Source: Okamejei kenojei (taxonomy: Eukaryota). Taken from it: a stretch of 64,000 nucleotides of DNA. The stretch is taken from positions 8,866,001 to 8,930,000 of the forward strand of contig CM069174.1 in the NCBI GenBank assembly GCA_035221665.1, read 5' to 3'. The notes beneath the pieces are model-generated. The model saw only the letters and a program-made list of their open reading frames with translations, searched no databases and had not been told where the DNA came from. Both the position numbers and the translations under genes were made by a program. Positions 27,731-32,270 of the stretch are shown here, in pieces; the stretch's first letter is position 1; each line of letters opens with the position of its first letter.

Positions 27731-29522
27731 CCAGTTCTTCAGGGGTAACCCTAGACTGAATGTGAATTGAGTTCATGATTGGCTTTGCCATAAGTTTCAC
27801 GATTGAGCACAGAACAGCAATCAAAAGCTGGAACCATGACTGATATTTCCTGTCTCTAAACATGTTTTTTTTCAGAAATCAACTGCTCTGGACAGCATTT
27901 TGCAGCAAGCAGCTTCAAGATTTAAACAATGCCATCAGATTCATATATTGCATTATATTACAGCATCAGCTGGAGCCACACACAGATATTTTCAACGTTT
28001 TATTTTGCGGCTGTAAATGTCCATAAAACAAATGTTTTAAACAATGTCGTGCAGGGATGAGAAGTGTTGTTGATGTTCCACTGCAAAATGTGCCAGTCAG
28101 TGGGTATATGTGCCCTAATCACTTAAACGCCCGTTTGAAGAAAAGTCCTTTAAAAGGGCTATGATTTTAAAAGTGGGCAGACAGTAAACAAATGATAACT
28201 CAATTCCAGAGAATCAGTGACAACTGTGAACTACTCAATTTTCAAGGAGTACAGAGAAACCAATTTATGAATATACAACAATTTCAAAACTTAATTTCTG
28301 CAGATAAAACTGTAAATTATTAATATTCTGATATCTTCATTAGTCAGTGGTTAAAAACTGCAGAAAACTTTCAGTTAAAACCATCATAGTGACAGCCACA
28401 GGAATCTTAGTAAAACTCAACTACTCACTAATATTCTGTTTAGCAGATCCTAAACACCACTGCAAATATTCAAAATATTAGTAACAGAATTAAATGAGTT
28501 TACAACTATTGTTTGTTAATGCTGAGTTATTACATCCATAGCACAGGTTTACTGCAAATGGCAATTACATTTTTGGTGTAATCTCAATTTATTGGATATT
28601 CGCTAAAATGTCACACTGGAATTTGAATGTATAGTCTCCCTCTTACTTGTCAAATTCATTATTACTATGCTACCACTCCTCCAGGTCATACTGTAAACAA
28701 TAATTTATTAGCTTACACGTGTTTTCACCAAACGGAACAACCTTTTACAATTATCGAATCAATTACTTATACAGTGTCATATGGTCATTTGATCCCTCTA
28801 CTCTTCCTTATAGTGGCCATATCATATTCCCTGGTTAAGGTGGTGAATGGGTAACTAAATGTACTCACAAGACTTCAATGTGGAAATTGTTAAGGCAACA
28901 GTAATTTTTCTGTTCCTGTGTCCTCTCCTGTCAGAGATTCCTTCAACATTGCTGAAACGTGGGAGTCACAGGCAAAGAAAAATGGCCTACATTGTACAAT
29001 CTCCTCGATTCTTCTCATGATAGCAACCCTCACAAGCCATAGGGGCTTGCCCATTCTGGATTTGTCCTAGAAATCACATTCTCTTTGATTAGGGCATCAT
29101 TGAGAACATGGCTCTTGTGACATCCTGCTCCTGCACTCTTTAAAAGGTCCAGGACCTCGGCTAAAATTTCAGCTTTTTTTGTTCTACAAAAACGTAGAAA
29201 TGATTCCATTAACATATCCCCAACCATCTGACAAAATATAACGGGTAAGAGGGGATGGCGAAGTACGAAGAACGAGGACGACTTTACCAGGTCACAACTT
29301 CTTCGACATTCAAGCAGCCCTCATACAATGAAAGAATCACATCAGCACAGCACTTGCAAAGAAAGGCCCTCACTGCAAAGCTATATGCTCTACTGCCAAA
29401 ACAGACAAGAAAAACCCAAAGGCTGCACAAATTTCACTGTGTAATGTCTGGTAAATGTGCAAGAGTGCAATATGCCAAGAAAAACGGATGGAAAAAAGCC
29501 CAAGTAACATGGTTCACAACAA

Positions 29523-29709
29523 GGGTACACAAAAAGCTGGAGAAACTCAGCGGGTGCAGCAGCATCTAAGGAGCGAAGGAGATGGGCGACGTTTCGGGTA
29601 TCGAAACGTCGCCTATCTCCTTCGATCCTTAGATGCTGCTGCACCCGCTGAGTTTCTCCAGCTTTTTGTGTACCCTCGATTCTCCAGCATCTGCAGTTCC
29701 TTCTTTAAC
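29523..29709. mobile_element. Fold-back (palindromic) PLE-derived element with 16-bp TSD
   Basis: 75-bp arms at 29522-29596 and 29602-29676 (2 mismatches, 5-nt spacer) plus a ~33-nt tail. TSD ACATGGTTCACAACAA at 29507-29522 and 29710-29725. Confidence 0.92.
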
Positions 29710-30702
29710 ACATGGTTCACAACAAAGCAGTTTTAAAACAATCAGTTTGAAAAATTTCCAATTGCAGTCCATGAGCTTATAATTTTTTTTCTTGAGAAAT
29801 ACAATGGACTGTCTCTCAAATATTTTGAAAGACTTAAGCAAGGAACATTCCTGTAAACCCACTTTTGTTTTAAGAAAATGGATGACCCGAATAACCCAAT
29901 ATTTATTTGTCATCTCCAGGAGAATAGAGTCAATTAAACAGTTTGAGACATATAGACACGATTTCCTCCTTTGAAGGACGTGAATGAAGCGGATGAGTCT
30001 TCGCAAGAATCCTGCTGGTGCTAATCAATAAATTACAAGCAACTGAAAGATATAAATTACTTTCTGGGCTGTCTGGATTAGCCAGTTGATCAAGTAAGAA
30101 TATACTAAAGGCTGAGTTACACAGAGGCAGTTGCTAGATACTCCATAAAGAAGTTAAGAGGGCGAGAAAATCTAAAGGATCCTGTACACAGCTACGGGTA
30201 ATTGAGCAATACCCAAGAGATGATTGATTGCAGGATTAATGCAACAACATACATTCACAGGGATAAACCTCAAAACCAGAAGGGTTCTGTCACTTAATGC
30301 AAGCAAACAGGATTTTTGAGGAACTGTTTAGCAGGATCCAGAAAGTAGCGCAAAGGTCATTTGACCAATTGGCCACAGGTAATAGGTGTGAAAATCCAAT
30401 ATTTACTGCTAAAAAAAAAACCATACTGAAAGTCAACGATTTTCAGAGACACTTTGTTTCGGATAGCGTCTTGATCAGAAGTGGGTATGCCAATAATTTA
30501 AATGTATAACCCATGAAAAAAAAAAACAGGTGCAGAATGCAAATGAAGACAGCTATACTGGATAACTGCCCTTTAAGCTGATGTCCAATGCTGACTGTGA
30601 TCAGTTATGATCTACGTGGGTATGTGAGCTCAAAGTTGTAGAGCTCATTAGGGTCTCATTAAAATCAATGGTGGGATAGATTATGCTGTCTTAATACCAC
30701 TG

Positions 30703-31200
30703 CATACCTGCCAACTTGTGAGAATGAAAAATCGGAATCTGATGTCAGTGAGGGCGGGGCACGTGACGTCAGTAAGGGGCGGGGCACGTGACGTCAGTAA
30801 GGGGCAGGGTTACGTGACGTCAGTAAGGGGCGGGGTGCGTGACGTCAGTGAGGGGCGGGAAAGTGACGTCAGTGAGGGGCGGGAAAGTGACGTCAGTGAG
30901 GGCGGGAAAGTGACGTCAGTGCGGGGGGGGGGGCAAGTGACGCCGAACGCCACCGTGGCGGGGCGGGGTCATGCGGCTGCGTGCTGACGTACACCCGTGC
31001 GTGCCCCCCTAAGCGGCGCAGGCGCGGTGCGCTCTCTCGCTGTCTCCTCGCTGCCGCCGCCGCCATGGGTCGCATGCACGCTTCCATCCCAATTCCGAAT
31101 TCCAATTTTTTTCGGAATATTGAGGAAAAAAATCGGAATTCGGAATTGGGATGGAAAAATCGGAAGAATTCCGCCCAAATCGGAATGGTTGGCAGGTATG
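30703..31200. mobile_element. Non-autonomous DNA transposon (MITE, possibly hAT-related) with 13-bp TIRs and 6-bp TSD
   Basis: TIR CATACCTGCCAAC (30703-30715) / GTTGGCAGGTATG (31188-31200). CCACTG duplicated at 30697-30702 and 31201-31206. Repeated subterminal CGGAAT motifs; CpG-rich. Confidence 0.88.
30740..30945. repeat. Minisatellite (23-26 bp unit) of TGACGTCA plus GGGCGG
   Basis: Seven perfect TGACGTCA (starting 30764, 30789, 30815, 30840, 30864, 30888, 30911) plus degenerate copies at both ends, separated by G-rich linkers. Confidence 0.95.
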
Positions 31201-32120
31201 CCACTGTAATTCTTAAAGTCACTCAGGGCTGTGACAGAATGGCTCTCCAAGGCTCAGGTCTATAAGTGAATTGTTCAACAGGTTCCCCAAGGGGAGGACT
31301 TCTTTACAGATTTCATTAGAATCTGAAGCCTGAACAGAGTACAATAACAAGTGTTTTGAAAGCCAGACATGTTCCTATTTTCACCAAAACGGATACAAAA
31401 AAGTTAATAAAAATAGCAAGTTGTGCACTAAACATGCATTATTGTATGCATTGAAATATACTTGGGAATCAAGCACAGCTCCCGGGACCATGTCAGGCAT
31501 TTAGGCTCCCTACTTAATGCAGATTTATATATTTACACTGCCTTTTCAGTATAACCTCAAACTAAATTATACTGTGAAAGTCTGTCCATATTGTAACATC
31601 CTTGTATTAACATATTAGAGCTATTGAATCTAAAATTGTGTCATGGCTCAGCGACCTGCTTATTTATCAGACACCGACCACAATTCGCTCCTTTGGTGAT
31701 GTACTCTACCCTTCATGTAGCACAATGATTGGATATGGTTTGGGCACTGGACTATCAGGGAGACATTGGGTTTTTATACAGTTTGTACAGTAAGGGGTTA
31801 AAGTTTGTCACCCAAGAGGTGCTCTTAATAATGTCATTAAACACCGACACATTTGCAACTCCATTGTATCAAACCAGAATGAGACTGAACGAGCTCCTGT
31901 GATTTGCGAATTAATCCTGAATGATAAAATGCACATTTTCAAACATTAATACACTGCAATGTATCTAAAGTAGTAGCTCTTGTTGACAAGATATCTAAGC
32001 TAAAAGCAAAATTATGCTGTTGGTTCAGCAACGGTTAGTAAACGGCTCACTATCCCTCTATTATTACCGACATTATTATGTACAGTCCTTTGTGACACTG
32101 TGATATTGCTGGTTACAGAC

Positions 32121-32270
32121 CTTGCTGAGAAGATGGCTGTGGGGGCTCAGCATTCAGACTCTGCAGGTAGTTGTGGCAACGTTCCTTGTGCTCTTCCAGT
32201 GAACTCTGCTGCTTGTAACTCCGCCCACAGTAGTTACATTTATAAGGTTTGCCGACAGTGGGAGAAGAGA
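32121..32270 (-). CDS. IKZF4: IKZF4 exon encoding zinc finger 4
   Basis: Acceptor CTCTTTCTAG|TC, donor G|GTCTGT, 150 nt. Encodes [50 protein letters not shown]; the VSSPT insertion is typical of Eos. Not reported in the ORF track. Confidence 0.93.

Follow-up and report, generated by a model that had tools for sequence, protein, structure and literature searches.

Host-sequence capture by cut-and-paste transposons has been described as rare and, in animals, almost always single-copy; the survey of Tan et al. (2021) lists 370 Pack-TIRs in 100 genomes, four of them multicopy (PMC8277862). Multicopy cases given there are the hAT example Pack-hAT-N8_XT, which carries the CAPSL 5′ UTR in three copies, and Ssk-FB4, and the capture models put forward are gap filling or fork switching (PMC8277862). 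Promoter-carrying Helitrons of bats have multiplied host 5′ ends into hundreds or a thousand copies, HelibatN3 having raised the promoter and first exon of NUBPL to about a thousand (PMC4224331, Thomas et al. 2014). hAT elements with 6-bp target site duplications (TSDs) constitute the hAT6 group, the definition of which, as given in PMC12730594, is silent on host-sequence capture.

The transposon family described here, found through a copy in an intron of skate IKZF4, overlaps with each of these systems. Like the animal Pack-TIRs of PMC8277862, it is a DNA transposon with terminal inverted repeats (TIRs) that holds a distant host fragment and has re-transposed, with distinct TSDs and GC-rich cargo; unlike them, it has reached several hundred copies with a whole housekeeping promoter and has captured four host loci, some serially into one element. 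It shares with the rice Pack-MULEs described in that source multicopy, trans-captured, GC-rich host fragments between TIRs, although those are plant Mutator elements and this is a vertebrate hAT. As in the bat Helitrons (PMC4224331), a host promoter, 5′ UTR, and first exon were amplified, with 5′-end bias and sequential capture; whereas those elements are rolling and capture by read-through, the skate element, a hAT that has TIRs and TSDs, moves by cut and paste and is young enough to be polymorphic still. A hAT transposase with 6-bp TSDs is common to this family and hAT6 (PMC12730594). Our preferred reading, to which we assign a probability of roughly 0.85, is that the RPS13 promoter entered a non-autonomous hAT element and was carried to several hundred sites, that the parent element was probably acquired horizontally, and that the IKZF4 copy is recent, unfixed, and likely neutral.

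The window (the whole 64-kb stretch of DNA analyzed) contains the host gene IKZF4/Eos on the minus strand; its last exon shares 99% identity with Eos of Leucoraja erinacea and 65% with that of coelacanth. The initial annotation had placed a transposon-borne motif array in the intron between the exon for ZF4 and the last two exons, and both the position and the motif content are borne out. TGACGTCA (CRE) occurs seven times, at 30764, 30789, 30815, 30840, 30864, 30888, and 30911, with spacings of 25, 26, 25, 24, 24, and 23 (the 23-26 bp claimed), and nowhere else in the window. Six GGGCGG boxes are interleaved with these CREs (30752-30900) and one more lies at 30961; CACGTG is present twice (30760 and 30785), and GCGGGAAA three times (30855, 30879, and 30902). 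An eighth array unit, at 30740, reads TGATGTCA and is one CpG transition away. When the bases of 30740-30970 were shuffled 20,000 times, two or more CREs never arose. The carrier is a non-autonomous hAT element of 498 bp (30703-31200) with 13-bp TIRs and the 6-bp TSD CCACTG, so the array is indeed transposon-borne. What had been missed is that the array leads on to the start tract and ATG of RPS13 (31030-31082). The features are as follows:

30697..30702, no strand: left 6-bp TSD (CCACTG), read from the sequence; repeated at 31201-31206, with 498+6 bases skipped in the empty allele
30703..30738, plus strand: transposon left end with the 13-bp TIR at 30703-30715; matches the first bases of the autonomous copy L234
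30739..30930, plus strand: captured RPS13 upstream promoter array of eight 23-26-bp CRE/GC-box units; no counterpart in the autonomous parent
30931..31064, plus strand: captured RPS13 core promoter and 5′ UTR with GC boxes, from alignment to the native gene
About 31031-31049, plus strand: pyrimidine (5′TOP-type) start tract within the captured RPS13 5′ UTR
31065..31082, plus strand: RPS13 ATG and first six codons (MGRMHA); exon-1 splice donor missing in this subfamily
31082..31200, plus strand: transposon right end, corresponding to the parent's 5′ end
31082-31113 and 31125-31156: arms of an internal hairpin in the right end
31188-31200: right TIR
31201..31206, no strand: right 6-bp TSD
32121..32270, minus strand: IKZF4 ZF4 exon, 920 bp from the element; translation and splice sites read from the sequence

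The captured core promoter also contains a palindrome that we take to be NRF1-like. Base 31009, presumably a TATA-like position, is C in the window and A in the native gene and all compared contigs; this C could be a change private to the copy or reflect an error in the assembly. Elsewhere in the window, positions 1-1000 form a CpG island (GC 0.57-0.66, CpG o/e >0.9) that belongs to a neighboring gene.

Immediately 3′ of the array, a pyrimidine tract, GCC repeats, and ATG-GGT-CGC-ATG-CAC-GCT correspond to the start of ribosomal protein S13. A Pfam search located two RPS13 loci: the gene with its introns, on C18, and, on C22 (G000:C22:11741870), an intronless retrocopy that has an open frame. 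The only native RPS13 5′ end lies on C18, and the element matches it at 244 of 274 positions (89%), array included; across the captured core promoter and 5′ UTR the majority sequence of the copies differs from the native one at 3 of 151 columns. The native promoter itself comprises five CRE/GC-box units and a degenerate sixth. Three of its CREs are perfect, CACGTG occurs three times, and GCGGGAAA is absent. As the array is contiguous with the RPS13 5′ end and the native promoter has such units of its own, the array is captured host DNA, a complete housekeeping promoter and not a chance assembly of motifs. The E2F sites, which had been counted as part of the design, cannot be kept as such, being absent from the native promoter; most close copies have one.

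Runs from four other organisms were also searched, of which C and F were informative; the contig from B fell short of the array and D was too shallow. In both C and F, contigs run from the array into exon 1 and the intron of RPS13. For organism F, the depth of the array contig was 7.8 vs 8.3 for the intronic contig, and for organism C the array region had ~7-fold extra depth, possibly from collapsed units or other copies. An element-type junction was present in the shallow run X16 from organism D, where a close relative, diet, or contamination is possible. One loose end at the ATG runs into what we take to be profilin-like sequence; a chimera was considered and rejected, and we regard this as a chance match of the GCC repeat.

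Genome-wide, we counted 689 exact left-end 20-mers, 541 exact right-end 23-mers, 391 exact RPS13-to-right-end junctions, and 1,822 exact CRE+GC-box units, the last of which agrees with the earlier view of a mobile, ready-made CpG-rich regulatory cassette spread across the genome. The subfamily of the window copy numbers several hundred copies, several of which were seen to have distinct TSDs. TSDs could be scored in 23 of the 30 junction copies that come first along the genome; 22 of these had an exact 6-bp TSD, and none had 7 bp or the 8 bp canonical for hAT elements. Arrays contain between 2 and 29 units (82 copies) and have expanded to 26 perfect CREs in one copy (L067, G000:C3:17516998-17518038) and 22 in another (L233). 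The right end of a further copy (L149, G000:C25:18490644 onward) is broken by an LTR-retrotransposon-like insertion. With TIR-transposon ends, a host parental copy that lacks transposon flanks, and distinct TSDs, the family is a multicopy Pack-TIR whose copy number is unusually large by animal standards, and its copies are candidate promoters. Searches of the open literature listed no published report of this family.

The parent was located solely via a variant left end, of which there are 43 copies genome-wide (39 read, plus four array hits from another search). The RPS13 array is present in 16 of these and another host fragment in 20, five are coding, and two are other remnants. The coding copies span 4.4-5.8 kb, and four of the five lie within 2.6 Mb on C30 (L252-L255). 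All five assembled copies have a stop or frameshifts; two look error-rich, and some of the lesions are possibly assembly errors. The 4.45-kb parent, L234 (G000:C6:65257710; 4,463 bp), has a perfect 6-bp TSD and encodes a two-exon transposase with a hAT dimerization domain. Both ends of the 498-bp element match it, the element's left end corresponding to the 3′ end of the transposase gene. The dimerization domain (PF05699) scored E 3e-5, above the cut-off, in one of three transposase pieces scanned and is carried by many transposase homologues; among the best 20 loci in a genome search with PF05699, none had the element's TIR. The 6-bp TSD and hAT transposase point to a hAT6-like family.

The parent transposase is 93.4%, 92.6%, and 90.8% identical over three segments to a protein of the sea urchin Diadema setosum, which is the best among 40 homologues (93%), the second best reaching 55%. 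The likeness extends to a Ser/Thr/Lys-rich insert that is repetitive and variable. When the sea-urchin transposase was used in a structure search, the only matches were to low-complexity repeats. Since the two transposases are more alike than the IKZF4 exons of skate and coelacanth, horizontal transfer is likely, and the comparison, resting on one annotated D. setosum protein, suggests that the parent entered skates by this route.

The copies form a derivative series. In those that are presumably oldest, the parent left end meets native RPS13 at a 2-base microhomology, and the whole of exon 1 is retained together with its GT donor, which 16 copies still have. In the subfamily of the window copy, the donor has been replaced by an inverted copy of the right end, producing the hairpin, and other copies harbor a nested host repeat that has a duplication of its own. 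A palindromic repeat with 75-bp arms at 29522-29676 of the window belongs to a very common host family, members of which also sit inside many element copies, accompanied by a 13-bp duplication.

Sister subfamilies contain three further CpG-rich host fragments. One, of about 2.6 kb, covers UTR, first exon, and intron sequence of CACNG2/3 (TARP); 117 candidates yielded 87 protein matches, split hits and paralogues included, and the source, on C22 (G000:C22:22934500-22944400), lacks TIRs. Dozens of copies of 3-4.6 kb (L051-L056) have an intact CACNG2/3 exon 1 of 71 codons plus donor, for which there are 21 matches at 100%, the source among them; these could mislead TARP gene annotation. Another fragment is a CpG-rich segment of C6 with a GT donor-like site and 23 near-full matches, and the last is a CCAAT/GC-box segment, the probable source of which, on C10, is an indel-rich stretch matching at just 80-87%. 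Judging by their motifs, the C6 and C10 fragments are presumably promoters. All four source loci overlap CpG-rich windows, and no parent sequence was found in the 20-30 kb around any of them. Capture in trans, together with the microhomology, fits the gap-filling or fork-switching models. We infer the following order of events. Template-switching repair likely placed a copy of the RPS13 promoter in a non-autonomous hAT, and the transposase of the 4.45-kb parent, itself probably brought to skates by horizontal transfer, likely moved the resulting element to several hundred sites; slippage or unequal exchange would have changed array length among copies.

The IKZF4 copy was compared with sequencing runs, and an empty-site joint was present in two of four. 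In run X2, a contig joins 30696 to 31201, skipping 498+6 bases, with 24 letters on its short side and a depth of 15.7 vs 35-39 in the flanks; the same skip is seen in run X6, with 39 letters and a depth of 3.4. Run X1 had no such joint, its contigs entering both element ends for 27-28 letters (the bridging rule being 31 letters), and the contigs of run X7 did not cover the flanks. With the joint found in X2 and X6, the insertion is polymorphic. The captured start site is on the plus strand, antisense to IKZF4 and directed towards the ZF4 exon. Orientation and polymorphism indicate that the copy is likely neutral, and if it fires, the product would most likely be a short plus-strand RNA that leaves the element antisense to IKZF4.

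Sequence decay was assessed in 88 distinct copies, a non-random sample in that 30 were chosen for likeness to the IKZF4 copy. Their median divergence from the majority sequence was 0.75%, and 491 of 550 CRE cores were perfect. When alleles in more than two copies were dropped, CpG transitions stood at 21/3,721 vs 19/5,045 for other C/G positions (ratio 1.5, p 0.20); a cut of four gave 30/3,721 vs 23/5,045 (ratio 1.8, p 0.05), and with no alleles dropped the ratio was 0.77, all of these figures being mixed with assembly noise. The scarcity of CpG decay reported for the window copy is not supported as a sign of function, as in these data a 1.5-1.8-fold CpG excess is inseparable from neutral youth. 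The comparison of copies that had been proposed reveals variation in unit number and high motif retention. Youth is enough to account for the intact motifs and is mostly what the scarce CpG decay reflects.

Two alternatives concern where the array came from and what it does in IKZF4. Most copies have the array beside the left TIR, the position typical of subterminal repeats, and it could in principle be native to the transposon (for example, as transposase-binding repeats or its promoter) and donated to RPS13. The parent, however, has no such array: TGACGTCA is absent from the first 1.5 kb of all five coding copies and from the L234 sequence. Further, the array continues without a break into the RPS13 UTR and ATG and lies at RPS13 in two other species, while the native RPS13 locus bears no transposon remnant, with no TIR there and no parent match in the 29.7 kb around it. 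We therefore consider a transposon origin extremely improbable and retain capture of the host promoter. As to IKZF4, the initial annotation had suggested that the array might drive an internal transcript lacking the DNA-binding fingers. The element does lie upstream of the last two exons, the next exon has an in-frame Met, and CpG-island promoters often fire bidirectionally, so that divergent firing with a cryptic minus-strand donor might yield such an RNA. Against this, the promoter points mainly in the antisense direction, we identified no first exon on the minus strand, and the RPS13 splice donor is missing from this copy; neither is the insertion fixed or conserved, and being polymorphic it cannot underlie a conserved IKZF4 isoform. 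A fingerless transcript is accordingly very unlikely, and the unfixed state, the orientation, and the missing donor speak against co-option as an IKZF4 promoter or enhancer; the other possibility raised at the outset, a young MITE, is the correct one for the IKZF4 copy.

A broader proposal is that many copies elsewhere are active promoters or enhancers, with the array unmethylated, new starts created, and the carrier perhaps kept accessible to transposase. The near-intact core promoters and CRE cores, the weak CpG transition excess, and the CpG-rich nature of all four captured fragments are in keeping with this, as are the numbers: about 700 copies carry the array, whereas 27 of the 43 copies with the older end do not. 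Promoter-carrying bat Helitrons likewise reached higher copy numbers (PMC4224331). Among the runs listed as containing the sequence, none is on record as RNA; in runs X6 and X7, which we guess to be RNA, a spliced RPS13 exon 1-2 junction and element sequence were both present, in contigs that carry no information on start, strand, or level and so do not bear on activity. However, capture of the array happened a single time, which leaves its success without independent replication, and a base change at the left end accompanies that success; moreover, the CpG-poor cargo of the CACNG subfamily has a similarly weak CpG excess (ratios 0.9-2.9), which leaves the CpG test little power. Widespread activity is thus possible, but we are doubtful of it. 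The further idea that a horizontally acquired hAT prefers to capture open CpG-island promoters and is boosted by them, its carriers staying unmethylated and accessible, is speculative, and we think it improbable. Were it true, a promoter boost would explain why array carriers outnumber array-less relatives about 25 to 1, a vertebrate genome would hold hundreds of functional, still-segregating housekeeping promoters, and the copies would be a natural allelic series for the birth of CpG islands and new start sites.

Under the preferred reading of promoter capture and recent spread, one recent invasion has left the skate genome with several hundred complete housekeeping promoters and three more captured CpG-rich fragments, and the intermediates, parent, and source loci all persist there. 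The probable transfer between sea urchin and skate would date the episode. Because copies vary in unit number (2-29), donor retention, and presence or absence between individuals, they make it testable whether a CpG-island promoter works autonomously anywhere in a genome and whether promoter cargo favors the spread of a transposon.
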